From the NCBI GenBank assembly GCA_034432155.1, contig DAOUCP010000098.1, positions 583 to 64,582 on the forward strand: 64,000 nucleotides of DNA, in the 5' to 3' direction. Source of the stretch: Anaerolineae bacterium. Its GTDB lineage: Bacteria > Chloroflexota > Anaerolineae > Epilineales > Epilineaceae. This document shows positions 3,370 to 25,901 of the stretch, in pieces (positions within the stretch are counted from its first letter, which is position 1; the number at the start of each line of letters is the position of its first letter). The notes below the pieces were generated by a model. That model did no database searches. It had not been told where the DNA came from and saw only the letters and a program-made list of their open reading frames with translations. Made by a program: the position numbers and the translations under genes.

Positions 3370-3388
3370 CTGCGTTGCTCTCCCGTGT

Positions 3389-6531: not shown

Positions 6532-6812
6532 CCAACGGATCGAAAATCTACTTTGGCGACCTCAAGCCAAAACGGGGCGTCATCCATATAGAAATAGATC
6601 GATGTAAGGGTTGCGGTTTTTGCGTCGAATATTGCCCTAGAGATGTGCTTGCCATATCCGAGATCTTCAATGCGAAAGGGTACCATCCGCCAGAGGTAAG
6701 AGACATGGCGAACTGCTGCTACTGTCAGCTCTGCGAGGCGATCTGTCCTGAGTTTGCCTTGTTTGTCACGTGCGCGGAGGAGGAAGCAGAGGTTGGAGAC
6801 CGTAACGGCTGA
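6528..6812 (+). CDS. korD: 2-oxoacid:ferredoxin oxidoreductase delta subunit (2x[4Fe-4S] ferredoxin)
   Basis: 94-aa ORF with CKGCGFCVEYCP and CCYCQLCEAICP motifs. Notably AT-rich compared with its flanks. Confidence 0.8.
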   Translation: MTNGSKIYFGDLKPKRGVIHIEIDRCKGCGFCVEYCPRDVLAISEIFNAKGYHPPEVRDMANCCYCQLCEAICPEFALFVTCAEEEAEVGDRNG

Positions 6813-7959: not shown

Positions 7960-8837
7960 GCGAGATGGAAGCGCCGACCAAAGAGGCGAAGGTGCGAAAC
8001 CCCCTGGAGGGCTTCCTCCGGATGGACCGTATGCCGCACATCTGGTGCTCGGGTTGCGGTATCGGCATCGTCGTCACCGCCTTCGCGGACGCCCTGCGCA
8101 AGAGCGGCGTGGATCTGGACAAGGTGGCGGTCGTATCCGGGATTGGCTGCACGGGTCGCGTCGCTGGCTACATCCGGCTGGACTCGTTCCACACCACGCA
8201 TGGCCGGGCTGTTCCGTTCGCCACCGGGCTGAAGCTGGGCAATCCCGAATTACAGGTGGTGGTCTTCAGTGGCGACGGCGACATTGTGGGCATCGGTGGC
8301 AACCATCTCATCCATGCCGCGCGTCGCAACATGGACATCCTGGTGATCTGCGTCAACAACTTCAACTACGCCATGACCGGCGGGCAAGTGGCCGCGACGT
8401 CGCCCATTGGCGCGAACCTGTCCACCGCGCCGTTTGGCAACTTCGAGTATCCCTTCAACTTGCCGTACCTAGCCGACGCCTGCGGGGCCAGCTACGTCGC
8501 CCGCTGGACGTGCCTCCACATTCGCCGGCTGACGCACACCATCCGCGAAGCGTTGGGCAAGCGAGGGTTTCGCTTCATCGAGGTCATCACGCCTTGCGTC
8601 ACGGTGTATGCGCGCCGCAATCGCCTGGGGCAAGGGCTGGATCTCCTCAAGTACTATTACAACGAATCCGAAATTAAGCATCACGCAGATACAAGAGATG
8701 TCGCAATCGGTTACCAGAGTAAGATTATTTGCGGCAAATTTGTTGACCGAGAAAAGCCAACGTTTTTAGATTGCATGAATAGTTATCTTACCAGCAAACT
8801 CGGCGATAAGTACGTGCCTTATGGAGTCCAGGAATGA
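7956..8837 (+). CDS. korB: 2-oxoacid:ferredoxin oxidoreductase beta subunit (TPP-binding)
   Basis: Carries the GCxGR...GDGD TPP motif (SGIGCTGRVAGY...FSGDGD). The start overlaps the korA stop. The 3' ~190 nt are AT- and Lys-rich. Confidence 0.85.
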   Translation: MSEMEAPTKEAKVRNPLEGFLRMDRMPHIWCSGCGIGIVVTAFADALRKSGVDLDKVAVVSGIGCTGRVAGYIRLDSFHTTHGRAVPFATGLKLGNPELQVVVFSGDGDIVGIGGNHLIHAARRNMDILVICVNNFNYAMTGGQVAATSPIGANLSTAPFGNFEYPFNLPYLADACGASYVARWTCLHIRRLTHTIREALGKRGFRFIEVITPCVTVYARRNRLGQGLDLLKYYYNESEIKHHADTRDVAIGYQSKIICGKFVDREKPTFLDCMNSYLTSKLGDKYVPYGVQE

Positions 8838-9400
8838 CCGAGATCCGATTCTCCGGGTTCGGTGGCCAGGGGATCATCCGCTGTGGTCTCATCACGGGCA
8901 AGGCAATCTCGCTGTTCGGGGGCAAGTACGCCACGATGACCCAGAGCTTTGGACCCGAGGCGCGAGGCAGCACCTGCAGCTCGCAACTCGTCGTTTCCGA
9001 GGAGCGCGTTCTATATCCCTACGTCGATCGGCCGGAGATCCTGGTCGCCATGTCCCAGGATGCCTGCGACAAGTATGAGCCGGAGCTGCGGGACGGCGGC
9101 CTGCTTCTGGTGGACGCGGACCTGGTGAAGGCCGATCGGGCCGCCGGACGCGTTCGCGTGTTCGCCGTCCCGGCGACGCGGATGGCGGAGGAGATGGGCA
9201 ACCGCATCTTCGCCAACCTGGTGATGCTGGGGTTCTTCACCGCGGTCACGCAAGTGGTCTCGGCCGAGGCGATGAAACGGGCGCTGCCGGGCTTGGTTCC
9301 CAGTCGCTCGCTGGACCGGAACATCGAGGCCTTCGACCGTGGCTACGAGTATGCCCTGACGTTGCTGGCTTCCCAGGCCGCGAAGGAGGGGCCGGCGTGA
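8834..9400 (+). CDS. korG: 2-oxoacid:ferredoxin oxidoreductase gamma subunit
   Basis: Begins MTEIRFSGFGGQGI, as in POR/KOR gamma. Its stop overlaps the GTG start of hdrA. Confidence 0.85.
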   Translation: MTEIRFSGFGGQGIIRCGLITGKAISLFGGKYATMTQSFGPEARGSTCSSQLVVSEERVLYPYVDRPEILVAMSQDACDKYEPELRDGGLLLVDADLVKADRAAGRVRVFAVPATRMAEEMGNRIFANLVMLGFFTAVTQVVSAEAMKRALPGLVPSRSLDRNIEAFDRGYEYALTLLASQAAKEGPA

Positions 9401-11352
9401 AGCGCGTGGGTGTGTTCGTCTGTCACTGCGGCGTGAACATTGCCGGCACGGTGGACGTCCGGTGGTTGGCGGCGGAATTGGCAAAGCAGCCCGGTGTCGT
9501 CCATGCCGAAGACTACCTGTACATGTGCTCCGATCCCGGCCAGAACCGGATCATCGAGGCTATTCGGCAGAAAGGCCTGGATAGCATCGTGGTGGCTTGC
9601 TGTTCCCCCAATCTCCACGAAAGCACCTTTCGCCGGGCGGCGCAGGCGGCGGGACGGAACGCCTACGAGTGCGAGATTGCCAACATCCGTGAGCAGTGCA
9701 GCTGGGTGCACCGGGACAGGGCGCTTGCTACGGCCAAGGCTCTGCGGATCAGCCAGATTGCGATCGAGCGCGTGCGTGGCAATGAGCCACTGGAGCCGCT
9801 GAGCGTGAGCGTGACACGGCGTGCCCTGGTCGTCGGAGGCGGGATCGCCGGCATCCAGGCAGCGCTGGACCTGGCCAATGCAGGCTACGAAGTGGTGTTG
9901 GTGGAGCGCTCGCCCTCCATTGGTGGGCACATGGCGCAGCTATCGGAGACGTTTCCCACGTTGGACTGCTCGCAATGCATTCTGACACCCAAGATGGTGG
10001 AGGCCGCCAAGCACCCGAACATCCGGTTGATGACCTACAGCGAGGTGCAGTCGGTCTCGGGTTATGTCGGGAACTTCCGGGTGAAGATCCTTCGCAAGCC
10101 GACGTACGTCGATGCCGACAAGTGTACCCTCTGTGACGAGTGCACGAAGGTGTGTCCGATTGTCGTTCCGAACGAGTTCGACCATGGACTGACCGGGCGA
10201 CGCGCCATCTACATGGCGTTCCCCCAGGCGGTTCCGGCCACCTACGTGCTCGATGACAAGGCCTGTCCGGACCCCATCGTAACCATCGCTTGTGGCAAGT
10301 GCATCGAAGTCTGTGAGCCGAAAGCAATCAGCTTCGATGATCGGCCGCAAATCGTCGAGGAGGAGGTCGGCGCGATCATCGTTGCCACCGGTTACGACCT
10401 CTACGGCAAGCAGCACATGGCCGAGTACGGTTACGGTGCGTACCCCGATGTCCTGGATGGACTGCAATTCGAGCGCCTGTGCTCCGCTTCGGGGCCCACC
10501 ATGGGACGGATCCTCCGCCCTTCGGACCACCAAGAGCCCAAGGAGGTGGTCTTCATCCAGTGTTCGGGTGCGCGCTATCCCGAGCTGCACCGCCCCTACT
10601 GCTCGAAGATATGCTGCATGTACACTGCGAAACATGCGATGCTGTACAAGCATCATGTCCCGGATGGTCAAGCTTATGTTTTCTATATTGACATCCGATC
10701 GGGCGGGAAGGGCTACGAGGAGTTCGTGCAGCGAGCGGTCGAGGAGGATGGGGTGATCTACCTGCGCGGCAAGGTGGCGCGGGTCTTTGAAGAGGATGGC
10801 AAGCTGGTCGTGATGGGCGTGGATACGCTTTCTGGCCGAACGGTCGAGATTCGGGCCGACATGGTGGTGCTGGCACAAGCGATGGTGCCAGCGGAGGATG
10901 CAGCTGGACTTGCCAAGCGGCTCAAGATCGGACTGGACAAGGACGGCTTCATGGCGGAGGCTCATCCGAAGCTGCGTCCGCTGGAAAGCGTGACCAGCGG
11001 CGTATTCCTCGCTGGCGCCGGACAGGCGCCCAAGGACATTCCTGAGGCTGTGGCGCAAGCCAGCGGTGCCGCGAGCAAGGCGGTAGCCATCCTTGCCCAA
11101 GAGCGGCTGTGGCATGCGCCGACGGTGGCCCAAGTGAGAGAGGCGTTGTGCACCGCCTGTGGCATGTGTGTCGCAGTATGTCCGTACGACGCTATCTCGC
11201 TCGTGGGTGGGCGCGTGGAAGTGAACGAGATGCTTTGCGAGGGCTGCGGGACATGCGCCGCCACCTGTCTGCGGGCGGCGATCGAGGTCCGCAATGCCAC
11301 CGGACACCAGATCGAGAAGATGCTCTTCGCCTCCTTGGCTGGCCGGCTATGA
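9397..11352 (+). CDS. hdrA: Heterodisulfide reductase subunit A-like (FAD plus multiple 4Fe-4S clusters)
   Basis: 651-aa ORF with an N-terminal VFVCHCGVNIAG Cys cluster, a GGGIAG FAD dinucleotide-binding motif, and inserted and C-terminal ferredoxin motifs (CTLCDECTKVCP, CTACGMCVAVCP). Confidence 0.9.
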   Translation: MKRVGVFVCHCGVNIAGTVDVRWLAAELAKQPGVVHAEDYLYMCSDPGQNRIIEAIRQKGLDSIVVACCSPNLHESTFRRAAQAAGRNAYECEIANIREQCSWVHRDRALATAKALRISQIAIERVRGNEPLEPLSVSVTRRALVVGGGIAGIQAALDLANAGYEVVLVERSPSIGGHMAQLSETFPTLDCSQCILTPKMVEAAKHPNIRLMTYSEVQSVSGYVGNFRVKILRKPTYVDADKCTLCDECTKVCPIVVPNEFDHGLTGRRAIYMAFPQAVPATYVLDDKACPDPIVTIACGKCIEVCEPKAISFDDRPQIVEEEVGAIIVATGYDLYGKQHMAEYGYGAYPDVLDGLQFERLCSASGPTMGRILRPSDHQEPKEVVFIQCSGARYPELHRPYCSKICCMYTAKHAMLYKHHVPDGQAYVFYIDIRSGGKGYEEFVQRAVEEDGVIYLRGKVARVFEEDGKLVVMGVDTLSGRTVEIRADMVVLAQAMVPAEDAAGLAKRLKIGLDKDGFMAEAHPKLRPLESVTSGVFLAGAGQAPKDIPEAVAQASGAASKAVAILAQERLWHAPTVAQVREALCTACGMCVAVCPYDAISLVGGRVEVNEMLCEGCGTCAATCLRAAIEVRNATGHQIEKMLFASLAGRL

Positions 11353-11771
11353 GCGACGACTTCGAGCCGGTCATCGTCGCCTTCTTGTGCAAGTGGTGCT
11401 CCTCGGCGGGGAGCGATCTGGCGGGCGTATCCCGAATGCAGTATCCGCCGAATGTGATCCCCATTCAGGTCATGTGCTCGGGCAGCGTCTCGCCCCTGTA
11501 CGTGCTCGCCGCGTTCAAGCGGGGTGCGGACGGTGTGCTCGTGTCGGGCTGCCACCCGGGCGATTGTCACTACACGAGCGGGAACCTTCACGCGCGGCGG
11601 CGATTGGCCCTGACGAAGAGACTCCTCGAGTACGTTGGCTTGGAGCCCGAACGGTTCCAGGTCTCGTGGGTCTCGGCGGCCGAGGGCAAGAAGTTCACGG
11701 AGATCATCCAGGCCCTGACCGCCGAGCTGAAGCCGCTCGGACCGCAGACCAAGCTGAGGCGAACGCCATGA
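11349..11771 (+). CDS. mvhD: MvhD/FlxD-like [2Fe-2S] electron-transfer subunit
   Basis: Begins MSDDFEPVIVAFLCKWCS...GCHPGDCHY. Both junctions are ATGA overlaps: with hdrA upstream and with the next gene downstream. Confidence 0.85.
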   Translation: MSDDFEPVIVAFLCKWCSSAGSDLAGVSRMQYPPNVIPIQVMCSGSVSPLYVLAAFKRGADGVLVSGCHPGDCHYTSGNLHARRRLALTKRLLEYVGLEPERFQVSWVSAAEGKKFTEIIQALTAELKPLGPQTKLRRTP

Positions 11772-12970
11772 CTCACCCCTCGTTGCGGACGGATTCTGCT
11801 GGCCGGACGGATCCCTCTGCTGGGAGCGATTCGTCGGCCGTGGCCGAGTCGCCTGCTCTGGCTGGCCCGGCCACGGCGGCCGTGCCCGAGTCGTCTGCCC
11901 GGGCTGGGCTGCCCACCGCGGCCGATTCGTCGGCCGTGACCGGACCTGCGGCCGAGCTCATCGCCACCGTTGGGCAGCTCTTGTTGGATGCGACGGTGGC
12001 GTCTGTGCTGGCCTACGAGCGCGATGTGCGAACCGGTGGAGCGCGACCGGTCCGCATCCGGGATGTCGACGAGGCCAGACGCCTCGTCTGGGACCCCACC
12101 TGTGTCCACAACCTCGCCCGCTTTTTCCTTGCCGAGCGAAAGCGGCAGGCGACCGGCGGCGTGGCTGAGGGTCGGCCGACGGGGATCGTGGTGAAGGGTT
12201 GTGACAGCCGAGCGATCGCCGTGCTGCTGCAGGAACGGCTCATCCGACGCGAGGAGGTCTATCTGATCGGTGTCTCGTGCGGCCGTGGGGGTGTGGTGGA
12301 CGAGCGACGTCTGCACGCCCTGGTGGCGGGGCAGAGCCCGACGCGCGTGGCGTACGAGGAGGGGGATGCATTCCTCGTGCACACACCGGGCGGGGCGCTG
12401 CGGGTGCCTTTCTCGGAGCTCATGGCCGACCGCTGCCTCGATTGCCGCATGCCGTCGCCCCGACTCTACGATGTCCTGATCGGCGAGCCAGCAAGCCGTG
12501 CGGTGCAGAACCCATATCGCTCGCTGGAGGCCATCGAGTCGCTGTCGCCTTCCGAACGGTGGGCCTTTTGGCAACGCGAATTCGACCGCTGCCTGCGTTG
12601 TTACGCCTGTCGTTCGGTCTGCCCGATGTGTTACTGTGAGGAGTGCGTGGCTGACCCGACCCAGTACGCCGTCACGGCCCAGACGACGGCCGAGGAGAAG
12701 GCGCAGCGGGTGCGATGGGTCGAGAAGTCAACGGTGACTGCCGAGAATGCCTTCTACCACCTGGTGCGGGCCATCCACATGGCCGGGCGCTGCATCGACT
12801 GCCAGGAGTGTGAGCGCGTCTGTCCGGTGAACATCCCCTTGCGCCTCTTGTACAAGGCCATGGAGAAGGAAGCCGAGGCCTTGTTCGGTTATACCGCTGG
12901 CGCCGATCCCGATGCTCCGGCCCTCGTCGCCTCGTTCCGGATGGAGGATCCCAGTGACTTCATCCGCTGA
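11768..12970 (+). CDS. HydB/AsrA-like iron-sulfur subunit (FlxC-like)
   Basis: The C-terminal 2x CxxCxxCxxxCP motifs and the region from ELIATVGQLLL onward are collinear with the 53229-54110 paralog. The ATG at 11768 has a GAGG RBS. The first 56 aa form an S/A/P-rich low-complexity stretch containing DNA direct repeats. A GTG at 11936 is an alternative start. Confidence 0.7.
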   Translation: MTHPSLRTDSAGRTDPSAGSDSSAVAESPALAGPATAAVPESSARAGLPTAADSSAVTGPAAELIATVGQLLLDATVASVLAYERDVRTGGARPVRIRDVDEARRLVWDPTCVHNLARFFLAERKRQATGGVAEGRPTGIVVKGCDSRAIAVLLQERLIRREEVYLIGVSCGRGGVVDERRLHALVAGQSPTRVAYEEGDAFLVHTPGGALRVPFSELMADRCLDCRMPSPRLYDVLIGEPASRAVQNPYRSLEAIESLSPSERWAFWQREFDRCLRCYACRSVCPMCYCEECVADPTQYAVTAQTTAEEKAQRVRWVEKSTVTAENAFYHLVRAIHMAGRCIDCQECERVCPVNIPLRLLYKAMEKEAEALFGYTAGADPDAPALVASFRMEDPSDFIR

Positions 12971-12986
12971 ACCGAGGTGTCAGACG

Positions 12987-14015
12987 GTGCCCAAGGCGAG
13001 CCTTGGCGCGTGGCTGGCTCGTCTCGAGGGTTACCAGATCTACCTTCCGCAGTGCGAAGCGGGGGTCTGGAACTATGCTCTGTGGCGCGGTGCGTCCGAC
13101 GTCTGTCTCGACTACCCGATGACAGTGATCCCAGCCAAGGCGTTCGTGTTTCGGCAGAGCGAGCCCCTGCTGGCTTTCCGGCAAGGAGAGGATGGTGGCT
13201 ACGAGGTCGAGGAGACGACGCTCGAGGTGCAGCCCGCCGTCATCGTCGGGCTCCGCCCTTGCGAGGGGCGGGCCATGGTCCTCCTGGACGAGGTCATGGA
13301 GCGGCCACCGGCGGACGTATTCTACCGCCAACGGCGACGAGCAACGGCCCTCGTTGGTCTGGCGTGCAACGTGCCGCCATCGCCGGACTGCTTCTGCGAT
13401 TCGGTGGGCGGATCGCCCTACGGAGAATCTGGGCTCGACGTCCTTCTCACCGACCTTGGCGACCGCTACTTCGTCCAGGCGCTGACCGAGCAGGGCGAGG
13501 CACTGGTGGCCGCCGGGGAAGGTGAAATGGCACCCGTCGATCCGGCCGACCGATCGGCGGTCGAAGAACGCCACCGGGCTTCGCTGGCACAGATGCCGCG
13601 GCGTCTTGGCAGCCTCGAGGACATCCACCGCAAGCTGGCCGATGCCTTCGATGCGCCCCTGTGGCGTGAGGAGTCGATGAGCTGCATTGGCTGCGGCATC
13701 TGTACCTACCTATGTCCTACGTGCCACTGCTTCGACATCAACGACGAGGTCATGAGCATCACGCCGCTCCGTGGCCTCCGGATTCGCACCTGGGATACGT
13801 GCCAGTTTGCGGATTTCACGATGCATTCCTCGGGGCACAATCCGCGCCCGGATGCGGCGGCGCGCCTGAGGCAACGCGTGAGTCATAAGTTCCGCTACGG
13901 AGTCGAGGCCGGGCTAGGCATCCTGTGCGTCGGCTGCGGCCGCTGCATCTCGCAGTGTCCGATGGGCATCGACCTCGTCCGCATTCTCGAGGAGGTCAGG
14001 AATCGTCTCGGCTAA
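12987..14015 (+). CDS. HydB/AsrA-like iron-sulfur subunit (FlxB-like)
   Basis: Carries CIGCGICTYLCPTCHC and CVGCGRCISQCP motifs and is collinear with the 54165-55412 paralog. The ORF is open from 12912, overlapping the upstream gene. The start is set at the GTG at 12987 and is uncertain. Confidence 0.7.
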   Translation: MPKASLGAWLARLEGYQIYLPQCEAGVWNYALWRGASDVCLDYPMTVIPAKAFVFRQSEPLLAFRQGEDGGYEVEETTLEVQPAVIVGLRPCEGRAMVLLDEVMERPPADVFYRQRRRATALVGLACNVPPSPDCFCDSVGGSPYGESGLDVLLTDLGDRYFVQALTEQGEALVAAGEGEMAPVDPADRSAVEERHRASLAQMPRRLGSLEDIHRKLADAFDAPLWREESMSCIGCGICTYLCPTCHCFDINDEVMSITPLRGLRIRTWDTCQFADFTMHSSGHNPRPDAAARLRQRVSHKFRYGVEAGLGILCVGCGRCISQCPMGIDLVRILEEVRNRLG

Positions 14016-14061
14016 TCCGTACCTGCCCCGTCTCGGGCGGGTTCGCTCCATCCGACAAGAG

Positions 14062-14829
14062 GTGGGTGGGCTCCGCCCTATCAAGACGCTCCAGGTCGAG
14101 CTGCTCGACGGGGAGCCGTTCGTCTTTCGCTGCGGTCAGTGTGCCATGCTGTCGGTCTTCGGCCGCGGCGAGTCGATGATCTCCGTCTCATCCTCACCGC
14201 TTGTCACCGACCACTTGCAGTTCAGCGTCCTCAAGACGGGGCGCGTGACCACGGCCATCCATGATCTCGAGGTCGGCGATGTGCTCGGCATTCGGGGGCC
14301 CTACGGCAATGGCTTCCCCCTCGAGGACTGGCGAGGCCACAAGTTGGTCTTCGTGGCCGGTGGCATTGGCCTGGCGCCGATCTGGTCGGTCCTGCAGACG
14401 GCGCTGCTGCGTCGAGCAGAGTTCGGGGCATTGACGCTGTTCTACGGTGCCCGGAGCTCGGCCGACCTGATCTATCGCGACGAGCTGGAGGCGTTGCGCT
14501 CCGACATCGCACTGTTCCGGTCGATCGATCAGGCGGAGCCTGACTGGCCAGAGTTCGTGGGCTTTGTGGCCCAGAATGTGGCCGACAAGAAGCCTGCCGC
14601 GGATGGCGCTACGGCTGTGGTCTGTGGCCCGCCGGTGATGATCCGGACCGTCGTCCAGGCCCTATCCGGCCTTGGGTTTGCCGATGAGCAGGTCTATACC
14701 ACCCTGGAAAACAAGATGAAGTGCGGCATTGGCAAGTGCGGCCGTTGTGGCATCGGGCACCATCTCATCTGCCGCGATGGCCCGGTGTACTCCTGGGCGC
14801 AGCTACGGCGCCTGCCGCCAGAGTACTGA
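14062..14829 (+). CDS. FAD/NAD(P)H-binding oxidoreductase with a C-terminal [2Fe-2S] (HydG/AsrB/FlxA-like)
   Basis: Contains a ferredoxin-NADP reductase-like fold motif (GIRGPYGNGFPL, VAGGIGLAP) and a C-terminal CGIGKCGRC. Confidence 0.8.
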   Translation: MGGLRPIKTLQVELLDGEPFVFRCGQCAMLSVFGRGESMISVSSSPLVTDHLQFSVLKTGRVTTAIHDLEVGDVLGIRGPYGNGFPLEDWRGHKLVFVAGGIGLAPIWSVLQTALLRRAEFGALTLFYGARSSADLIYRDELEALRSDIALFRSIDQAEPDWPEFVGFVAQNVADKKPAADGATAVVCGPPVMIRTVVQALSGLGFADEQVYTTLENKMKCGIGKCGRCGIGHHLICRDGPVYSWAQLRRLPPEY

Positions 14830-14845
14830 CTTGGAGAGGCTCGCG

Positions 14846-15523
14846 ATGCCAGAGGCTGAGAAGGTGACCGTCTACATCATGGGTCGGCCCTACCGGGTCC
14901 CGGCGGACGCCACCATCATGGGGGCCATCGAGTACGCTGGCTACCAGATCAAGCGGGGTGCTGGCTGTCGAGAAGGCTTCTGCGGCGCCTGCGCCACCGT
15001 CTATCGCCTGCGGGGGGACTACAAGATCTACACCGGAATGGCGTGCATGACCTTGGTCAAGGAGGGCATGTGGCTGGCACAGCTCCCGGCCATTCCGGCC
15101 CAGAAGCCAAGCTACGACATCGAACAGCTCGCCCCCACCGTGGCGGCCTTCCAGCGCCTCTATCCAGAGATCTTCCGCTGCGTGGCCTGCAACACCTGCA
15201 CCAAGGCCTGTCCCCAGGGACTGCAGGTGATGGACTACATCCAGGCGGCCAAGCGTGGCGACATCGCTACCGTCATGGACCTATCCTTCGATTGCCTGGC
15301 CTGTGGTCTGTGCGCCATCCGCTGTCCGGCAGAGATCGTGCACTACCACGTCGCCATCCTGGCGCGGCGGCTGTACGGCCGCTACCTGGCCCCGCGCAGC
15401 GAGCACCTCGACCGGCGGATCGAGCAGGTGCGCTCGGGGTGTTACAACGGCCAGTACGCCGAGCTGATGGGCCTCTCCAAGGAAGAGCTGAACCAGCGAT
15501 ACTACGCGCGAGACATTGAGTAG
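14846..15523 (+). CDS. frdB: Succinate dehydrogenase/fumarate reductase iron-sulfur subunit-like
   Basis: The CREGFCGACA...GMAC [2Fe-2S] motif is diagnostic of SdhB/FrdB. It also has CVACNTCTKACP and CLACGLCAIRCP motifs. The ATG sits behind a GGAGAGG RBS. Confidence 0.75.
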   Translation: MPEAEKVTVYIMGRPYRVPADATIMGAIEYAGYQIKRGAGCREGFCGACATVYRLRGDYKIYTGMACMTLVKEGMWLAQLPAIPAQKPSYDIEQLAPTVAAFQRLYPEIFRCVACNTCTKACPQGLQVMDYIQAAKRGDIATVMDLSFDCLACGLCAIRCPAEIVHYHVAILARRLYGRYLAPRSEHLDRRIEQVRSGCYNGQYAELMGLSKEELNQRYYARDIE

Positions 15524-15600
15524 CCTTTTCCCCCGGCTGCAGGCTGGGGTACGTGGGGATGGTGGGCTGCCACTGTCCCGTCTAGGAGCAGGAGCAAAGG

Positions 15601-17268
15601 ATGTACCCGGAGTACATGCAGGCCTCGCTTCGCAAGGTCGAAGAGACACGCCCGCGCCGCTTGGCGCTGGAGCGATCGGGCAAGCCGGTCTTTCCGCCCA
15701 TGACGGCCAAGGAGCGTCAGGCGGTCTTGGACCGGTTCCACCCCGACTACCAGCCGGATGCGCGACGAGCCGTTCGCGTTGGGCCCAACCAGGGCGAGCT
15801 CTTGACCACGGAGGTGGCCGATCTGCTCGAGTCGCATAGTCGCATCACTCCCGACCTCTTCGATCTCCGTGTCCCCGACTACGAGACGGACATCCTGATC
15901 ATCGGCGGCGGAGGAGCCGGTTGCGCGGCGGCCATCGTCGCGCGCCAACACGGTGCCTCCTCGATCATCGCCACCAAGCTGCGGCTCGGCGATGCGAACT
16001 CCATGATGTCCCAGGGCGGGATGCAGGCGGCGGTTGCCGAGCATGACGCGCCGCCGATCCATTACCTGGACGCCATGGGGGGCGGACACTTCGACAACAA
16101 GCCAGAGCTGGTGCGCGCCTTGACCGAGGATGCGCCCGAGGTGGTTCGGTGGCTCGAGGAACTGGGGGTGGTGTGGGACAAGAACCCGGATGGCTCACTG
16201 TACGTGCTTCACGGCGGCGGGACGTCGCGCAAGCGCATGCTCTCCTGCCGCGACTACACGGGCGCCATCATCATGCGAACCCTCATGGACGAGGTCCGCA
16301 ACCATCCCGACACCATCGCGGTGCTGGAGTTCATGCCGGTGGTCGAGCTGCTGCTCGACGAGCAGGGGCGATGCGCCGGTGGCGTGTTGTACAACCTGGA
16401 AACCGAGGAATACTTCACCGTGAAGGCCCGGGCCGTGATTCTGGCCACCGGTGGCTACGGCCGGCTGCACATCCGGAGCTTTGACACCACGAACCACTAT
16501 GGCGCCACGGGGGACGGGCTGGTCTTGGCCTATCGCGCCGGAGCCAAGCTCCTGTACATGGACTCCGTCCAATACCATCCAACCGGCGCTGCCTTCCCCG
16601 AACAGATCGCCGGCTTCCTCATCACCGAGAAGATGCGAGCCGCCGGCGGTCATCCCGTCAATCGGCACGGTGAGCTGTTCGTCTGGCCGCGCGAGCCGCG
16701 CGACGTCGAGAGTGCCGCCTTCATCCGGGAGTGCGTCGAGCGATCAAACGGCATCGAGACGCCCAGCGGGCGCTGGGGGGTCTGGCTAGACTCCCCCATG
16801 ATTGAGACGATTCAGGGCGAGGGCTACATCAAGCGCAGCTTTCCGGCCATGTATCGCCAGTTCAGTCGCTACGGCATCGACATCACCCTCGAGCCCATGC
16901 TGGTGTACCCCTGCCTCCACTACCAGAACGGGGGCGTGGAGATCAACGAGCGCTGTGAGACGAGCGTCCCGGGTCTGTACGTAGCAGGCGAGGCTTCCGG
17001 CGGGGTGCACGGCCGCAACCGGCTGATGGGCAACTCGGTCCTCGACTATAACGTGTTTGGCCGGCGCGCTGGGCGCTTCGCCGCCGAGTATGCCCGGCAG
17101 GCGACGATCGGCCGACTGTCCTTGGACCACGTGCGCGCCCACGAGGACGGGTTGCGCCAGGCCGGCATCGAGACCGACCGCCTGGCGCCGGTGCTGCTGC
17201 CGTCCTACACACCGGAAGATGTGCGCAAGCGGCAGCTCACCGCCCGCTACGAGGGCACGTTGCGCTAG
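15601..17268 (+). CDS. frdA: Succinate dehydrogenase/fumarate reductase flavoprotein-like subunit
   Basis: Carries a DILIIGGGGAGCAAA FAD motif, an HYxxGG-type motif and RLMGNSVLD of the SdhA/FrdA/NadB family. There is a ~90-aa N-terminal extension. Paired with the frdB-like gene, and no sdhCD-type anchor genes are adjacent. Confidence 0.8.
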   Translation: MYPEYMQASLRKVEETRPRRLALERSGKPVFPPMTAKERQAVLDRFHPDYQPDARRAVRVGPNQGELLTTEVADLLESHSRITPDLFDLRVPDYETDILIIGGGGAGCAAAIVARQHGASSIIATKLRLGDANSMMSQGGMQAAVAEHDAPPIHYLDAMGGGHFDNKPELVRALTEDAPEVVRWLEELGVVWDKNPDGSLYVLHGGGTSRKRMLSCRDYTGAIIMRTLMDEVRNHPDTIAVLEFMPVVELLLDEQGRCAGGVLYNLETEEYFTVKARAVILATGGYGRLHIRSFDTTNHYGATGDGLVLAYRAGAKLLYMDSVQYHPTGAAFPEQIAGFLITEKMRAAGGHPVNRHGELFVWPREPRDVESAAFIRECVERSNGIETPSGRWGVWLDSPMIETIQGEGYIKRSFPAMYRQFSRYGIDITLEPMLVYPCLHYQNGGVEINERCETSVPGLYVAGEASGGVHGRNRLMGNSVLDYNVFGRRAGRFAAEYARQATIGRLSLDHVRAHEDGLRQAGIETDRLAPVLLPSYTPEDVRKRQLTARYEGTLR

Positions 17269-17394
17269 CCGCGGCGGTCGTTCGGCTCCCGACCGACGTT
17301 GCGGCGGCTGCGCGCTCTCCCCGCCTTCCCCTGCCCTCCGCGTCGCCGTATCATCGAGCATCGCCGCGCAGATGGCGCGGTTCGAGAGAGGGCC

Positions 17395-18291
17395 ATGCGA
17401 CCAGGGGGCAAGGTGATGCGCGAACGACTCCGCAAGCTTGAACCGACGGTCGACGTGCTTGCCACCGGCGGCGCCCTGGCCGTGGTAGCGGTGATCTTCG
17501 TGGAGTCGACGGCCACCGACACCCGCTGGCTGCAAGGCGCTGCCGCAGCCAACTGGATGATTTGGTGGCTCTTCGTCGCCGATGCCCTGATCAAGGCATT
17601 GGCCCACGGCTGCCGGTGGCTCCGCACGCGGATGGCTTGGTTCGATTTCTTCGTGATCGCCGTCAGCTACCCTGGCCTCGGAAGCTTGTTGGCCTTCGCC
17701 CGGCTGGCCCGACTTCTCCGGCTCGGAAGACTGTCTCGAACCGCCCGGCTTGCCCGGCTGTCGCGGCTGCTACGGGCGGTGCGCCTCCTGCGCCTCGGTG
17801 CGGTGGCCGCCCGGGGCCTGGTGGGTCTTCACCGCGTGCTCGATCCGCGGGCCTTTCCCTTCGTCACCCTCGTCGTGATTCTGGTCGTGGCCGCTGGCGG
17901 TGGGGCCCTGTATCTCGTCGAGTCCGGCCTAGAGCCGCTGCGCATCGAGGATGCCCTGTGGTGGGCCGTGACCACCGTCACCACCGTTGGTTACGGCGAT
18001 CTGGTGCCGCACACCGGCCTCGGTCGCTGCATTGCCGTCGCTGTCATGCTTATTGGCATCACCTTCACCAGCCTCTTGACGGCCAACATCGCTGCGTACT
18101 TGACGCGGCGCGGCGACGAACGGGCCCAGGATGACGTCCTGGCTCGCCTAGACGCTCTGACGGCCAAGGTGGATCAGCTGGGGGCGGAGCTGGCGCGGTT
18201 GCGGTCTGCTGCGCGCTGCGTCGATGCGCTGCGCGACAGGGCGCTCGCCGATGCGGGATCCGAATCCGCCGGTGAATCCGGGGCCGGCTGA
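17395..18291 (+). CDS. Voltage-gated potassium channel (Kv/KvAP-like)
   Basis: The S4 helix has Arg at every third position (RLARLLRLGRLSRTARLARLSRLLR). The TVGYGD selectivity filter is present. The start is ambiguous between the ATGs at 17395 and 17416. Confidence 0.85.
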   Translation: MRPGGKVMRERLRKLEPTVDVLATGGALAVVAVIFVESTATDTRWLQGAAAANWMIWWLFVADALIKALAHGCRWLRTRMAWFDFFVIAVSYPGLGSLLAFARLARLLRLGRLSRTARLARLSRLLRAVRLLRLGAVAARGLVGLHRVLDPRAFPFVTLVVILVVAAGGGALYLVESGLEPLRIEDALWWAVTTVTTVGYGDLVPHTGLGRCIAVAVMLIGITFTSLLTANIAAYLTRRGDERAQDDVLARLDALTAKVDQLGAELARLRSAARCVDALRDRALADAGSESAGESGAG

Positions 18292-19586: not shown

Positions 19587-20423
19587 TCAGGATTGGCGCG
19601 GTCGCCCGACTGCCAGGACGGCCAGGAAGATCAGCGTCGCCGTGAGCACGATGGCCGCGCCGGAGGCCACACCAAGGTAGTATGACGCGTACAGCCCGAT
19701 CACGCCCGAGGCAGCGGCCACAAAAGCCGAGAGCGCCATCATGGCCGGCAACCGACGGGTGACGAGCGAAGCGGTAGCTGCCGGCGTGACCAACATGGCT
19801 ACCATCAGGGCCACGCCGACGGTCTGGAGGGAGATGGCGACCGTCACGGCAACGAGTACGAGCAGGAGGTTGTCGAAGAGTGCTGCTGGCAGGCGCAGCG
19901 TCGATGCCAGGACCGGATCGAAGGAGATGACCAAGAACTCCTTGTAGAAGGCGACGATGACCAGGAGGACCAAGGCACCGAAACCGCCGATCCAGACCAG
20001 CGACCGCGGGCCGACTCCCAGCACGTCGCCGAATAAGAAGTGACTCAAGTCCACCGCGTAGCTTCGCACCGTCGAGATGATGGCGATGCCAAGGGCGAAC
20101 ATCCCGGCGAAGATGACACCGATCGCCGTGTCCTCTTTGATGCGCCCTGTCCGGCGAACCGCGCCGATGCCCAACGATGCCACCACCGCGGTACCCAACG
20201 CCCACCAGAAGAGTGGCTCGCGGCTTCCGCCGCCCACCAGGTAGCCCACCGCCACGCCCGGCAGCACGCTGTGCGCCAACGCATCGCCGAAGAAGGCCAT
20301 GCCGCGGAGGACGACGTAGGTCCCCACCACCGCGCACACTGTGCCCGCCATGAGAACGGCCACCAGGCCCCGCTGCATGAACCCGTAGCGCAAAGGGTCG
20401 GCCAGCCAATCAGTGAGCGGCAT
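19587..20423 (-). CDS. znuB: Metal (Zn/Mn) ABC transporter permease
   Basis: 278-aa polytopic membrane protein of the ZnuB/MntB/TroC family. Confidence 0.85.
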   Translation of the reverse strand: MPLTDWLADPLRYGFMQRGLVAVLMAGTVCAVVGTYVVLRGMAFFGDALAHSVLPGVAVGYLVGGGSREPLFWWALGTAVVASLGIGAVRRTGRIKEDTAIGVIFAGMFALGIAIISTVRSYAVDLSHFLFGDVLGVGPRSLVWIGGFGALVLLVIVAFYKEFLVISFDPVLASTLRLPAALFDNLLLVLVAVTVAISLQTVGVALMVAMLVTPAATASLVTRRLPAMMALSAFVAAASGVIGLYASYYLGVASGAAIVLTATLIFLAVLAVGRPRQS

Positions 20424-21276
20424 GCCGGTCGCCCTCGCAACACGTATCCGCCACCACGTGATCGTCGACGATGGTCAACGCGGGGCCGTACGCTTCTCGC
20501 AAGAATGCCGACCGCATGACCACCTCGGCGGTGCCGAAGGCCACGAGCCGACGGTTAAGGAGCAGGATCCGGTCAAAGTAGCGTGCCGCCTGCTCGAGGT
20601 CGTGGGTGGCCACCATCACCGTCACCTTGGCGTGGCGCAGACGCTCCAGAAGTGCCAGCAGGCCCTCCTGAGCCGGTGCGTCCAGACCGGCGAGCGGCTC
20701 GTCCATTAGGAGCAGCTCCGATTCTTGGGCCAGGGCGCGAGCGATGAACATCCGCTGCTGCTGCCCGCCAGAAAGCTCCGCGATGTGGCGATCCGCCAGG
20801 TCGGCAATGCCGACCGTCGCCAGCGTCGTACGGACGAATTCCCAGTCTCGCTTCTTCGGCCAGCCGAAGAGACCCAGCTTGGCGATCCGCCCCATCATGA
20901 CGACATCGGCCACCGACACTGGGAAATGCCAATCGACCTGGTTGCGCTGCGGAACGTAGGCGATGCACACGTGCCCACTGGGCCCCGAGCCGTAGACCGT
21001 CACCTCACCTTCGTCCGGGCGCAGGACGCCGGCGATGACTTTGAAGAGGGTGCTCTTGCCTGCGCCGTTCGGACCCACCACGGCGATCCGCTCGCCAGGG
21101 TGGAGGTGGAAGCTCACCCCTTCGAGTGCGGCGAGGCCGTGGTACCGAACCGTCAGGCCACGCACGTCGAGAATGCGTTGGTCCGGTTTGTGGACCGAGT
21201 GGCGGTACACGGCGAGGGTCCGCCTGGTCCGATTCCGCCTTCTGCCGAACGAGCGAGCAAGAGAGAGTCTCGTCAC
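20410..21276 (-). CDS. znuC: Metal ABC transporter ATP-binding protein
   Basis: Walker A (GPNGAGKST), the LSGGQQQR signature and Walker B (LLLMDEP). The start codon is uncertain. Confidence 0.85.
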   Translation of the reverse strand: MTRLSLARSFGRRRNRTRRTLAVYRHSVHKPDQRILDVRGLTVRYHGLAALEGVSFHLHPGERIAVVGPNGAGKSTLFKVIAGVLRPDEGEVTVYGSGPSGHVCIAYVPQRNQVDWHFPVSVADVVMMGRIAKLGLFGWPKKRDWEFVRTTLATVGIADLADRHIAELSGGQQQRMFIARALAQESELLLMDEPLAGLDAPAQEGLLALLERLRHAKVTVMVATHDLEQAARYFDRILLLNRRLVAFGTAEVVMRSAFLREAYGPALTIVDDHVVADTCCEGDRHAAH

Positions 21277-22274
21277 TTCAATCCTTCTGCGATGGCCGTG
21301 ACATTGTACTGCATGTATTTCAGGTAGGTATCAGCCTTCCCACCCGGTTCACTCAGCGAACCCGTGTAAATGCGCACCACCTGGATCCCCGTGTCGTTGG
21401 CCACTTGTTCGGCCAGAGTTGGATTGGCGCTCATGCCAACGAAAATTGCCGGGACCCGCGCGGCGCGGATCCGCTCCTCGAGTTGGGCGAGCTCTCGCGC
21501 CGAGGGCGATGCGTTGCTGCTGAACGAGCCGATGAGCGCGCCGACCTGTTGAAAGCCATACTCCTGGGCGAAGTAGCCGAACACGAGATGATCGCTGACC
21601 AGTCTGCGTCGCTCGGGCGGGATCGGGGCCACCCGCACGCGGATCCAGGCATCGAGTTCGCGCAAACGTCCGGCGTAGGCCTCCGCGTTGGCCCGGTATG
21701 CCGCGGCGTGCGCGGGGTCGGCCTCGGAGAGGGCAGCAGCGATGTTCTCTGTCCAGACGATCACGTTGTTGGGATCGGTCCAGGTGTGGGGATCGCCACC
21801 CTCGTGATGGTGGTCGGCCGCCGTGGGGCCGCGCTCGTCCTCGGGTTCGCCTTCTTGGGGTTCCTCGCCTTGGCTGCCGTGTTGGCCGTCGCCGAGCTGC
21901 AGCGGTGGAATGCCCTCCGAGGCATGGACAACGGTGCCCCGGGCGTTGGATTCCAGTACGGGAGCGAGCGCCTCCTCCAGGCCTAGACCGTTGATGACGA
22001 TGACATCGGCGGCACCGATGACCGCCACGTCCTCGGGTCTGGGCTGAAAGGTGTGGGGGTCGCTGCCGGGCGGGAACAGAACCGTGCAGTCGATCCCGTC
22101 GCCGCCAACTTGGGCCACAACGTCCCCGACGATGGTTGTCGAAGCGACCACCCTGAGAGGACTCGGCCCGCCACCCAGCTCGCCGCGGCAGGCCGCGGGC
22201 AAGAAGGTGCCGATGATCCCGACGATGGCCGCGAGGCCGACGAGAAGAAGTCTGTGTCCGTGCGCGGTCACCAT
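21273..22274 (-). CDS. znuA: Metal ABC transporter substrate-binding protein (ZnuA/TroA family) with a His-rich loop
   Basis: Signal peptide plus a His/acidic loop (DHHHEGGDPH) typical of zinc-binding ZnuA. Confidence 0.85.
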   Translation of the reverse strand: MVTAHGHRLLLVGLAAIVGIIGTFLPAACRGELGGGPSPLRVVASTTIVGDVVAQVGGDGIDCTVLFPPGSDPHTFQPRPEDVAVIGAADVIVINGLGLEEALAPVLESNARGTVVHASEGIPPLQLGDGQHGSQGEEPQEGEPEDERGPTAADHHHEGGDPHTWTDPNNVIVWTENIAAALSEADPAHAAAYRANAEAYAGRLRELDAWIRVRVAPIPPERRRLVSDHLVFGYFAQEYGFQQVGALIGSFSSNASPSARELAQLEERIRAARVPAIFVGMSANPTLAEQVANDTGIQVVRIYTGSLSEPGGKADTYLKYMQYNVTAIAEGLK

Positions 22275-22295
22275 CGTTTCCTTCCCTCGAAGTGC

Positions 22296-22733
22296 TCAGC
22301 AGTCCGTCCGGCCATCCGTCTGACAAGCCTCGCAGACGCCGGAGACCTGCAACCAATGGTCGCGGATGTCGAAACCCGTCTCCTGACCGATGCGACGAAA
22401 GAGTGCCTCCAGGCGGTCGCCCTCGAACAGCACCGCCCGTCCGCAGCCTTCGCAAAGCAAGATGTGCTGGTGTCCCTGTCCGGCTCGCAGGAAGGCCTGA
22501 CAGCTCCGGGCTTGATGGACCCGCTGCACCAGACCCAGCGCCTCGAGCTTGTCGAGGGTACGGTATACCGTCACCAGGCCCAGGCGCGGATTGATCCGGC
22601 GACCCAAGTCAAAGACCTCGAGCGGCGTCAGTGGCCGCTCGGCAGACTGCATCACCTGGACCACGGCGCGCCGCGGCCCGGTCAAGCGACAGCCCGAGGT
22701 CCTGAGGCGGACCAGCCACGGTTCGAGGGTCAT
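22296..22733 (-). CDS. zur: Fur-family metalloregulator (Zur)
   Basis: Fur-family fold with CxxC...CxxC (CEGCG...CEAC). The ATG at 22733 is preferred over the TTG at 22763 because a palindromic box overlaps the TTG. Confidence 0.8.
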   Translation of the reverse strand: MTLEPWLVRLRTSGCRLTGPRRAVVQVMQSAERPLTPLEVFDLGRRINPRLGLVTVYRTLDKLEALGLVQRVHQARSCQAFLRAGQGHQHILLCEGCGRAVLFEGDRLEALFRRIGQETGFDIRDHWLQVSGVCEACQTDGRTDC

Positions 22734-22744
22734 GGTCGTGCCCT

Positions 22745-22762
22745 TACTGAAGTCCGTTTTCA
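22745..22762 (-). promoter_or_regulatory. Candidate Zur/Fur box (TGAA-N7-TTCA AT-rich palindrome)
   Basis: tgaagtccgttttca lies immediately upstream of the zur-znuABC operon start. It stands out as AT-rich in GC-rich DNA. Confidence 0.4.
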
Positions 22763-22804
22763 ACTATAGCGGCGCCGGAAGCCAAGATCAAGGCTCGGCC
22801 GCCA

Positions 22805-23068: not shown

Positions 23069-23159
23069 GGGCGGGCTGTCCGAGCTGCAGCCGCGGTCTA
23101 GGCCTGAATCAAGCGGTGCGCCATCGCGATCGCCTTGCAGGGGTCTCGGAGGCCGTGTC

Positions 23160-23600
23160 TGTCAAGGCGGTGCAAATGCGAGGGTGCTCCCCTTCGGGTA
23201 TGCGGTTAGCGGATGGGCGCGAAGGGGAACGGCGGGGCGGCTTCAAGACGGTCCGTTGCGGTCGGATCCGAGAGCGCCATCGACTCGTGGCTGAAATACC
23301 GTCGGTCGAGCTGCCACTCGTCGTCGATCTCCTGCAGGATCGTGCCGACCAGGCGAATCACGGACTCGTCGTCAGGGAAGATGCCGACGACGTTCGTCCG
23401 TCGCCGGACCTCCTTGTTGACTCTCTCCAGCGGGTTGGTCCAGTCGATCCTCGACCCGTGCGTTGGCGGGAAGGCCATGGTTGCCAGTACGCCGTTGCCT
23501 CCCTTTCGTCTGGAACGGACATTCGCCGAAAGGAAGTACACGGTGGCTCTCCTTGTCCACTCCGCCCAAGTACACCACTCCCTGAGACACTAGCCAATAC
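23160..23600 (-). mobile_element. 3' remnant of an IS256-family insertion sequence
   Basis: Encodes a transposase C-terminus (TNPLERVNKEVRRRTNVVGIFPDDESVIRLVGTILQEIDDEW). The terminal ~75 nt recur at 35018-35100. Confidence 0.6.
23206..23541 (-). pseudogene. IS256-family transposase, C-terminal 111-aa fragment
   Basis: Only the C-terminal domain is present. Upstream there is no continuation in any frame. Confidence 0.6.
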
Positions 23601-23761
23601 AGGCAAGACTGTACCTTTCGATCGCATGCCGTATGGCAATAAACCACAGGTTCGCATAACAACTGCTCTGGCGAGCCACCCCTTCCACCTTGCCGTCGGC
23701 CGGACTGTCCTTAGCGTAGCTGTTTGGAATCGGCGGGCAATGGCCGCCAAGGAGGTTCACG

Positions 23762-25087: not shown

Positions 25088-25901
25088 GCATTTGTGGCAA
25101 TAGATTTAGCAGAATCTGCTTGGGCTTTGCAAAAGCAAATATAAGGCAACCGCACACAGATGATATAGTGATTCACCCACGCTAATGCTAGGCTTCGAAA
25201 CACTACTTCTTGACCGTAAAGTCGTCACAGTAACACTGCGCTCAAGTCTTTGTGATGCATCATTTGAACCGATCCCTGATGGCGCGAGTGCATTCGCTCA
25301 GATATGTGCTTTTGCCCAGTGTGCAGAGAGACCGCGTAGATACGCCCCAGCCGAGTCCCGCATGCTGTTGTTCCGCCGCGGCGGCCAATGCGGGCGGGGG
25401 CCCGCGCGTCACTCTGACGACGGCCGCCAGGTGGGCCGCCATCGCCCCGGACTGCCGGTGCACGGCCTTCGCCACGCAAGCTGTGCTCGGGCGACTGCCG
25501 AGCCCGCAGAGAGGACTGGCAGCCCCAGGATTGACGGATCTGCCGCCGCAGGCCCGCCGCCGGCAGCCTTTGGCGGGCGGCGTGTAGGGCCACCATGCCC
25601 AGGCCGGGACGGATCCGGCGGCCCGCGCGGAACAGCGCCGCCGGCGCAGGCGGCCACCCGACAGACTGTCGCATCGCGACCGCACCGCCTGGCGGCCGAG
25701 CACGATGCCGCACGGCCTGCCTTCGTGCCACCGCCGACGGTGGTCTGGCCGCACGGCTCAGTAGTGGCTATCCTTGCGGACGGTTGACACGCAGTGCTTC
25801 GCGCTGGCGCGTCCGACGCCCTGGTCCGCTGCGACGGAGACGCTTCCGGCGACGGCGCGCATCGCTGCCCGAACGTCACGGAGGATGGGAGGAGGAAAAC
25901 C

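Follow-up and report, generated by a model that had tools for sequence, protein, structure and literature searches.

The stretch of DNA discussed here, called the window below, comprises 64,000 nucleotides of contig DAOUCP010000098.1 from an Anaerolineae bacterium (assembly GCA_034432155.1, positions 583 to 64,582 of the forward strand) and has a G + C content of about 66%. It carries a 13-gene operon in the order hdrCB-korDABG-hdrA-flxDCBA-FeS-flavoprotein, and the two genes that form its 3' end encode an iron-sulfur (FeS) subunit and a flavoprotein which are related to those of succinate dehydrogenase (Sdh) and fumarate reductase (Frd). This pair was described in an initial annotation, made from the nucleotide sequence, as a soluble SdhB/SdhA-like pair without anchor subunits, and it is discussed here together with its neighbours and its relatives in other genomes. 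Beyond what that annotation had noticed, a four-subunit 2-oxoacid:ferredoxin oxidoreductase (Kor) is encoded between hdrCB and hdrA, genes for fumarate hydratase (fumAB), malate:quinone oxidoreductase (mqo) and succinyl-CoA synthetase (sucCD) adjoin the operon, and the arrangement as a whole is one that has already been published as a hypothesis. The coordinates of the genes are collected in Table 1.

The FeS subunit contains 12 conserved cysteine residues, and their arrangement is the one that had been read from the sequence initially. The motif CREGFCGACA of the [2Fe-2S] type lies at residues 41-50 (nucleotides 14966-14995) and is completed by a fourth cysteine at residue 67, and the two full CxxCxxCxxxCP motifs are CVACNTCTKACP at residues 112-123 (nucleotides 15179-15214) and CLACGLCAIRCP at residues 150-161 (nucleotides 15293-15328). 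The two earlier motifs of SdhB are thus kept, and the three-cysteine motif CxxxxxCxxxCP of SdhB and FrdB is replaced by the four-cysteine CLACGLCAIRCP. Cys153, the second cysteine of this last motif, aligns with Ile in E. coli SdhB and with Val in E. coli FrdB, the site which decides between a [3Fe-4S] and a [4Fe-4S] cluster. In E. coli FrdB, a Val-to-Cys exchange at this position turns the [3Fe-4S] cluster into a [4Fe-4S] cluster. One [2Fe-2S] and two [4Fe-4S] clusters are predicted from these motifs, which agrees with the earlier suggestion that a second [4Fe-4S] cluster takes the place of the usual [3Fe-4S] cluster.

Judged by its sequence, the FeS subunit is only distantly SdhB-like. Pfam assigned Fer4-type domains to it and, weakly, Fer2_4, with no match to Fer2_3, the SdhB-type 2Fe-2S domain. 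The score on TIGR00384 (SdhB/FrdB) was 24.6 against a cut-off of 88, and that on NF004898 (TfrB) was 30.4 against a cut-off of 385, spanning residues 15-82 only. When it is aligned to E. coli SdhB and FrdB, the FeS subunit has no counterpart to the stretches of SdhB on either side of the quinone and anchor site. The start codon of the gene is uncertain within the range 14729-14846, and homologues have a Lys-rich leader that varies.

The flavoprotein carries the GGGGAG FAD (flavin adenine dinucleotide) motif at residues 102-107 (nucleotides 15904-15921), and the Pfam domain FAD_binding_2 (PF00890) matches residues 97-480 with 259 bits. Its residues His326, Thr342/Glu343, Arg346, Arg367, His440 and Arg474 correspond to His232, Thr244/Glu245, Arg248, Arg287, His355 and Arg390 of E. 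coli FrdA; all of them are invariant or nearly so among the aligned homologues (alignment A1), and His326, Arg367, His440 and Arg474 are fully invariant. As far as the alignment tells, the flavoprotein retains every residue that binds and protonates fumarate and is a member of the Sdh/Frd/NadB superfamily. It falls below the cut-off of every curated family: TIGR01812 (SdhA/FrdA) gave 279.6 against 567.3, TIGR00551 (NadB) 275.4 against 452.75, and NF004900 (TfrA), the best NCBIfam match, 335.3 against 718. Comparison with SdhA, FrdA, NadB and TfrA thus yields a fumarate/succinate active site that is kept and a protein that is not NadB. The position of E. coli NadB Glu121, a residue that serves the amino group of the substrate, is occupied by Gly across the whole family of the flavoprotein, so reassignment as NadB (L-aspartate oxidase) is unsupported; this identity was rejected on that residue, on the score given above and on the FeS partner, which is encoded upstream in 71 of 73 loci.

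Two hallmarks set the flavoprotein apart from that of Complex II. The position of the histidine to which FAD is covalently bound (FrdA His44, SdhA His45) is taken by Asn134; this column is kept across 113 homologues, and Asn is likewise found in every aligned relative that bears the N-terminal extension described below. The flavoprotein therefore lacks the attachment site of the covalent 8-alpha-N3-histidyl FAD of Complex II. Covalent attachment of FAD is needed for efficient succinate oxidation, and both His44 mutants of FrdA and enzymes that are naturally non-covalent, for instance Shewanella Fcc3, are able to reduce fumarate but are poor at oxidizing succinate. In addition, no match to Succ_DH_flav_C (PF02910) was obtained in the flavoprotein, the chain of which stops about 55 residues past the last helix of the FAD domain. 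Among solved structures, M. smegmatis Sdh1 and E. coli FrdA are the closest in sequence. An AlphaFold2 model of the flavoprotein alone, based on a 104-sequence alignment, has a mean predicted local distance difference test (pLDDT) score of 94.2, and its best fold match is E. coli FrdA (1kf6_A, TM 0.70 over 449 columns); roughly 100 residues, in essence those of the extension and of the C-terminal tail, have no counterpart in this match.

The initial annotation had counted roughly 90 residues ahead of the FAD motif of the flavoprotein and had contrasted them with canonical SdhA, where this motif lies close to the N-terminus. The count holds good: the extension comprises 93 residues, while E. 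coli SdhA, FrdA and NadB have only 3-9 residues ahead of the aligned position of the FAD domain. A length of exactly 555 amino acids is shared by 113 of the 120 best homologues. In these best homologues, mean identity to the window protein is 72% in the extension and 85% in the core, and the extension contains invariant blocks; furthermore, its pLDDT in the model is 93-98. Because of this, the extension is no artefact of annotation, but a real and translated, conserved and confidently folded part of the protein. In one distant relative, in which the FeS subunit and the flavoprotein are a single chain, the C-terminus of the FeS part continues straight into the extension. Since the FeS subunit is the sole universal partner and since the junction of this fusion lies at the extension, the sequences suggest that the extension most likely clamps the FeS subunit. 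Neither the extension alone nor the C-terminal tail alone matched any Pfam family.

Relatives were searched in 185,579 species genomes, one genome per species, and 323 related genes were obtained. The best 80 of these 323 have catalytic subunits 75-82% identical to those of the window and come mostly from metagenome-assembled genomes (MAGs) of Aminicenantes, and in addition from MAGs labelled Eubacteriales, Desulfaltia, Bacteroidales and Pseudomonadota. The closest relative, in GCA_900174595.1, has a flavoprotein 88% identical to that of the window, and its sucDC genes are divergent from hdrC. Complete genomes with the cluster include OY970261.1, CP070825.1 and GCA_900174595.1. The FeS gene lies directly 5' of the flavoprotein gene in the 71 loci mentioned above, and of the related loci, 50 extend far enough upstream for the neighbours to be read; in 48 of these 50, Hdr/Flx genes are physically linked to the pair. 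All genes from hdrB to the flavoprotein gene are present and colinear in 41 of the 50, and a short form, hdrCB-korDABG-hdrA-mvhD followed by the FeS and flavoprotein genes without flxCBA, in seven (L056, L060, L061, L065, L075, L078 and L080); several of these seven come from hydrothermal or subseafloor samples, as judged by their isolate names (JdFR, Guaymas, HyVt). In an Alphaproteobacteria MAG (L092), the order is rearranged to FeS-flavoprotein-rubrerythrin-hdrCB-korDABG-hdrA-flxDCBA; identity to the window proteins is 73% for the flavoprotein and 66% for the FeS subunit. Genes for anchors of the SdhC/D type were absent from the 80 related loci, the flanks of which hold Flx, Hdr and Kor genes instead.

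The pair also occurs in other company. One of the 50 loci (L074, positions 5721-11668) encodes, in order, a DUF362 protein, the product of a 197-codon open reading frame (ORF), FlxB, FlxA, the FeS subunit and the flavoprotein, with hdr and kor genes absent within 10 kb; by its gene content, this seems to be the enzyme in a simple form linked to NADH. More distant relatives that bear the extension are 42-57% identical to the window's flavoprotein and keep most of the extension: in marine Gammaproteobacteria (L083/L084, positions 9366-12891) the pair stands with a NuoF-like NADH subunit, in a genome bin of the Prochlorococcus type (L085, 10001-12357) it stands alone, and in a further locus (L086, 5250-7433) it is the fused FeS::flavoprotein chain, of 727 residues. 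Since the pair is found with a NuoF-like subunit, alone, fused and with FlxB and FlxA only, these arrangements suggest a portable catalytic cassette.

Table 1. Genes of the operon and of the divergent group upstream of it, with their positions in the window.
Gene	Position	Strand	Product and features
sucD, 5' part	1-608	-	succinyl-CoA synthetase
sucC	679-1869	-	succinyl-CoA synthetase
mqo	1870-3447	-	malate:quinone oxidoreductase; Mqo 709.7 bits; coordinates are ORF bounds
fumB	3389-3976	-	class I fumarate hydratase, beta; Fumerase_C; start approximate
fumA	4087-4977	-	class I fumarate hydratase, alpha; divergent from the operon
hdrC-like	5193-5600	+	4Fe-4S dicluster protein, Fer4_8; gene 1 of the operon
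hdrB-like	5650-6531	+	two CCG domains; both CX(n)CCX(n)CXXC motifs intact
korD-like	6528-6812	+	2x[4Fe-4S] ferredoxin subunit of 2-oxoacid:ferredoxin oxidoreductase
korA (alpha)	6793-7959	+	NF006412, generic 2-oxoacid:acceptor model, 558.5 bits (cut-off 411)
korB (beta)	7956-8837	+	thiamine pyrophosphate-binding
korG/korC (gamma)	8834-9400	+	POR domain
hdrA	9397-11352	+	651 aa; candidate bifurcating flavoprotein; HdrA2 model 811.6 bits (cut-off 1100)
mvhD/flxD	11349-11771	+	FlpD domain
flxC-like	11768-12970	+	FeS protein; 5' end with 42-nt tandem repeat
flxB-like	12954-14015	+	Fer4_22; AsrA/HydB-like
flxA-like	14023-14829	+	NAD_binding_1 and DHODB 2Fe-2S domains; AsrB/HydG-like; NAD(P)H entry module; start 14023 or 14062
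FeS subunit	14846-15523	+	225 aa; 2Fe-2S-type Cys pattern, two CxxCxxCxxxCP motifs, conserved C-terminal tail of about 55 aa; no CCG domain
Flavoprotein subunit	15601-17268	+	555 aa; 1-93 conserved extension; 94-500 FAD and capping domains with catalytic residues; short C-terminal tail

The other genes of the operon are tightly packed, with overlaps of 4 nucleotides between start and stop codons at hdrB/korD, korA/korB, korB/korG, korG/hdrA, hdrA/flxD and flxD/flxC. All seven subunit types of FlxABCD-HdrABC are present by domain, namely FlxA, FlxB, FlxC, FlxD, HdrA, HdrC and an HdrB with two CCG domains. At the 5' end of the flxC-like gene, a tandem repeat of 42 nucleotides (11835-11924, 2.1 copies, 83% matches) encodes an Ala/Pro/Ser-rich insertion of about 55 residues, which makes the product about 400 residues long, compared with 343-344 in homologues. 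Conservation across the cluster is uneven (L003-L082): the flavoprotein, MvhD, KorA, KorB and HdrA are 75-78% identical, HdrB about 59%, and FlxB and FlxC about 50%, which may stem from exchange of the cluster between phyla or from unequal constraint on the subunits of one complex. The genes fumAB, mqo, sucC and the start of sucD diverge from the intergenic region that they share with the operon. Anchor genes of the SdhC/D type, which had been reported as not adjacent, are missing there and were not found across the whole window by Pfam scans. Beyond fumAB, mqo and sucCD, further genes of the tricarboxylic acid (TCA) cycle were not found in the window, and this includes ATP citrate lyase, aconitase and isocitrate dehydrogenase. 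A scan for promoters and terminators between 4700 and 18500 gave counts at or below the expectation from shuffled sequence.

From these genes we propose, with a probability of roughly 0.55, that the pair forms the catalytic module of a fumarate reductase that has no anchors, binds FAD non-covalently and is presumably cytoplasmic, and that bifurcation at HdrA, fed by NADH, uses this enzyme as its high-potential exit. NADH would be oxidized at FlxA, and FlxB, FlxC and FlxD (MvhD) would relay the electrons to the HdrA FAD, the site at which electron pairs would be bifurcated. The high-potential electron would travel through HdrC/HdrB and the pair to fumarate (E0' +33 mV), the FeS subunit being the wire from the FeS cluster of its partner to the flavin, and the low-potential electron would go to the KorD ferredoxin and the Kor enzyme, where it could drive the conversion of succinyl-CoA and CO2 to 2-oxoglutarate. 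The net reaction would be 2 NADH + fumarate + 2 Fd(ox) -> 2 NAD+ + succinate + 2 Fd(red), where Fd is ferredoxin, and together with the neighbouring fumAB and sucCD it would give a reductive route from malate to 2-oxoglutarate on NADH alone. With this potential of fumarate and that of NAD at -320 mV (PMC5861303), reduction of ferredoxin near -500 mV would be feasible. The direction toward fumarate reduction is favoured because the FAD is probably non-covalent (Asn134) and because of these energetics. The initial annotation had preferred a soluble fumarate reductase that docks onto the Hdr/Flx subunits to a quinone-linked Complex II, and this preference is borne out at the level of sequence by the linkage to Hdr/Flx genes and by the rearranged order; the docking and the reaction would be those proposed above.

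Several points weigh against this proposal. The direction of electron flow is its weakest part, and the neighbouring Mqo works oxidatively; mqo sits between fumAB and sucCD, so that an enzyme of the oxidative direction stands beside an apparently reductive route. Docking is ambiguous as well: the pair adjoins flxA in the window and lies near hdrC in the rearranged order, and it persists without Flx in the short form and without Hdr and Kor in L074. Because the flavoprotein is below every curated cut-off, its substrate is deduced from active-site residues and context. Similarly, KorA passes the generic 2-oxoacid model and does not pass the model specific for 2-oxoglutarate, so it is the context that points to 2-oxoglutarate as its substrate. 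The two full CCG motifs of HdrB mean that thiol/disulfide chemistry is still allowed. Finally, no biochemical evidence for any member of the cluster, and no purification, assay or structure of such a cluster, was found in the literature.

The proposed assembly could also run in the opposite direction. Electrons from succinate, through the pair, and from reduced ferredoxin, generated by oxidation of 2-oxoglutarate at Kor, would then be confurcated at HdrA to give two NADH, that is, succinate would be oxidized independently of quinone in an oxidative TCA cycle. The divergent operon with mqo, fumAB and sucCD speaks for this, with five consecutive oxidative TCA steps being encoded together, and one 2-oxoglutarate and one succinate oxidized per turn would fit the stoichiometry of 2 + 2 electrons; moreover, the carriers are mostly MAGs of Aminicenantes, which are generally regarded as anaerobic heterotrophs. 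We nevertheless consider this direction unlikely, since enzymes with non-covalent FAD, as predicted from Asn134, oxidize succinate poorly, since the published cases are read as reductive, and since the reaction would be uphill, at standard conditions by about 85 mV per electron (potentials of PMC5861303). We give similarly low odds to a plain NADH:fumarate reductase without bifurcation, in which FlxA, FlxB and FlxC feed the pair directly and HdrABC-MvhD with Kor is a separate unit that shares the operon or the pool of ferredoxin. The position of the pair directly after flxA in the window is what such an enzyme would lead one to expect, as are L074, with its FlxB-FlxA-FeS-flavoprotein set without Hdr and Kor, and the module of the marine Gammaproteobacteria, which has a NuoF-like NADH subunit only. 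However, the seven short-form loci keep the pair with Hdr-MvhD-Kor in spite of having no flxCBA, the rearranged order puts the pair beside hdrCB, and a single assembly is suggested by the kor genes lying among the hdr genes, with stop and start codons that overlap; furthermore, a direct wire from Flx to Frd would short-circuit a system based on HdrA.

Compared with these, a mechanism mediated by thiols, as in the Tfr of methanogens, is clearly less probable. HdrABC would reduce a diffusible disulfide, either of a DsrC/TusA-like protein or of a small thiol, and the pair would re-oxidize the thiol with fumarate. TfrA is the best NCBIfam match of the flavoprotein (335 bits), HdrB has both CCG motifs intact, genes for TusA and a DsrE-like protein adjoin the cluster in one locus (L002), and this mechanism is among the two options given in PMC6315080. 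The shuttle is unlikely because the FeS subunit lacks the CCG domain, the thiol-oxidizing part of TfrB, and because a thiol-carrier gene is not conserved in the cluster, in which only a single CCG protein is encoded; in addition, the partners of the pair elsewhere are NuoF-like or Flx proteins, which means electrons from FeS proteins. Likewise unlikely is a classical Complex II with remote SdhC/D anchors and quinone as the partner, and even when this is taken together with a NadB that happens to lie beside an unrelated ferredoxin, we regard the probability as very small. Membership of the flavoprotein in the Sdh/Frd/NadB superfamily would be compatible with either, the window is the only part of the genome that was covered, and the organism has the quinone-dependent Mqo, but the flavoprotein has neither the histidine for covalent FAD nor the C-terminal domain, all of the curated Sdh/Frd/NadB cut-offs are missed and Gly stands at the NadB Glu121 position, while the FeS subunit is without the segments that face anchor and quinone and without the 3Fe motif, and its gene is bound to that of the flavoprotein as a neighbour in nearly all loci and by fusion in one protein.

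Clusters of this type have been in the literature as a hypothesis since 2019, and the window locus adds a member from a host lineage that is new for the type. In tubeworm symbionts and in Thioflavicoccus mobilis, Rubin-Blum et al. (2019) observed korABCD and 'tfrAB' interleaved with flxABCD-hdrABC (PMC6315080); Mitchell (2024) also covers the tubeworm-symbiont cluster (PMC11636981). It was proposed that the cluster bifurcates electrons to 2-oxoglutarate:ferredoxin oxidoreductase and fumarate reductase, and it is co-expressed in Endoriftia (PMC6315080, PMC11636981, PMC13147460); a survey of 2026 still presents the coupling as a suggestion (PMC13147460). According to the published arrangement (PMC6315080, PMC11636981), the cluster of the symbionts and of Thioflavicoccus mobilis is the same as that of the window in its gene set, in the four-subunit kor between hdrBC and hdrA, in the co-directional fumarate reductase with AB subunits only and in its proposed function, and the order with rubrerythrin in L092, which is of the proteobacterial type, carries a flavoprotein and an FeS subunit with the identities to the window given above. 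The differences are that the symbiont cluster lies among genes of the reductive TCA cycle (aclAB, acn, idh and mdh), whereas in the window aclAB, acn, idh, pntAB and rnf are absent from the vicinity, which holds fumAB-mqo-sucCD instead; that the pair follows flxA at the 3' end in the window and stands at the 5' end in the symbiont-type cluster; and that the window, unlike the symbiont genomes, belongs to a bacterium of 66% G + C for which the scan gave mostly Aminicenantes MAGs as the closest relatives. In the succinate producer Pseudoclostridium thermosuccinogenes, a 'succinate operon' consists of fumarate hydratase, FlxABCD-HdrABC and a two-subunit fumarate reductase and was proposed to carry out ferredoxin-coupled formation of succinate (PMC7282089). 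By its description this operon shares all of these components with the window, but kor genes are not reported in it.

The window system may also be compared with enzymes that are better known. Among the curated models, TfrA of Methanothermobacter matches the window flavoprotein best. TfrAB has no membrane anchors, serves the reductive branch to 2-oxoglutarate and has a second four-cysteine motif in place of the 3Fe motif. However, TfrB has fused C-terminal CCG domains, which the window FeS subunit lacks, and compared with the TfrA model the window flavoprotein has the N-terminal extension of 93 residues, lacks the C-terminal domain and reaches 335 of the 718 bits at the cut-off. In type E (non-classical) succinate:quinone oxidoreductases and methylmenaquinol:fumarate reductases (MFR; SdhABEF, MfrABE), an extra cysteine in SdhB gives a second [4Fe-4S] cluster, and the partner is an HdrB-like CCG protein. 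The HdrB of the window has its best NCBIfam match in the SdhE/MFR anchor model, with 161.6 bits far under the cut-off of 500, but the window has no SdhF, its CCG protein is within the HdrABC set and the histidine for covalent FAD is absent. With the NADH dehydrogenase/heterodisulfide reductase FlxABCD-HdrABC of Desulfovibrio (Ramos 2015), the window operon has all seven subunit types in common at the level of domains. The canonical Flx-Hdr of Desulfovibrio is thought to reduce the disulfide of DsrC and sits with an alcohol dehydrogenase, whereas in the window kor and fumarate reductase are built in; to our knowledge, flavin-based bifurcation by the Desulfovibrio prototype is unproven in vitro. 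Moreover, Hydrogenobacter thermophilus reportedly has a soluble, five-subunit NADH-dependent fumarate reductase, FrdABCDE (Miura 2008). Its accessory subunits are of another kind, not Flx or HdrA, and we do not know of any bifurcation by it.

With respect to these reports, what is added here is the breadth of the family and its unusual conservation, the hallmarks of the flavoprotein (the folded N-terminal extension, the loss of the C-terminal domain and the loss of the histidine for covalent FAD), the natural variants including the fusion, and the context of fumAB-mqo-sucCD. With its 323 related genes, the family is no curiosity of tubeworm symbionts. If the proposed coupling to fumarate reduction is real, the energy cost of the reductive TCA cycle changes, NADH alone being sufficient from malate to 2-oxoglutarate, and fumarate joins the short list of high-potential acceptors of HdrA-type bifurcating enzymes. 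The window locus and its variants, namely those without Flx, without Hdr and Kor, fused as FeS::flavoprotein and linked to NuoF, are defined constructs for this hypothesis. A wider and more tentative idea, to which we give a lower probability than to the proposal on the pair itself, is that all 13 proteins form a single soluble megacomplex that joins the fumarate/succinate and succinyl-CoA/2-oxoglutarate steps to the NADH pool through the flavin of HdrA, so that fumarate reduction would pay for reductive carboxylation or the reverse, without quinone, membrane or free low-potential ferredoxin. Such a megacomplex would be a cytoplasmic replacement of Complex II, seemingly widespread in Aminicenantes and scattered in MAGs of Desulfaltia, Bacteroidales, Pseudomonadota and Alphaproteobacteria, and the FeS-flavoprotein pair, N-terminal clamp included, would be a portable cassette able to work with NuoF-like or Flx-only donors as well.

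Some further features of the window are described briefly. A second set, in the canonical order hdrC-hdrB-hdrA-flxD-flxC-flxB-flxA and without kor or frd, lies at 49022-56405 (+) and is 38-55% identical to the TCA-linked set. Upstream of it are genes for a hybrid histidine kinase/receiver protein (47717-49021) and a Pyr_redox_2 protein (45963-47510), and downstream is a carboxylate-type transporter with CitMHS and TrkA_C domains (58052-59938). The next gene 3' of the flavoprotein gene encodes a K+ channel (Ion_trans_2, 17299-18291, +) and is followed, within 19587-22763 (-), by genes for a metal ABC transporter resembling znuABC and for a Fur-family regulator; beside the cluster in other genomes, none of these genes recurs. 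In the regions 23100-26900 and 30200-31300, long ORFs overlap on both strands with few or no Pfam matches, and the gene calls there are uncertain. Moreover, an ORF of about 1,428 codons at 38178-42464 (-) encodes a protein with a C-terminal Peptidase_C25 domain of the gingipain type and a DUF11 repeat.

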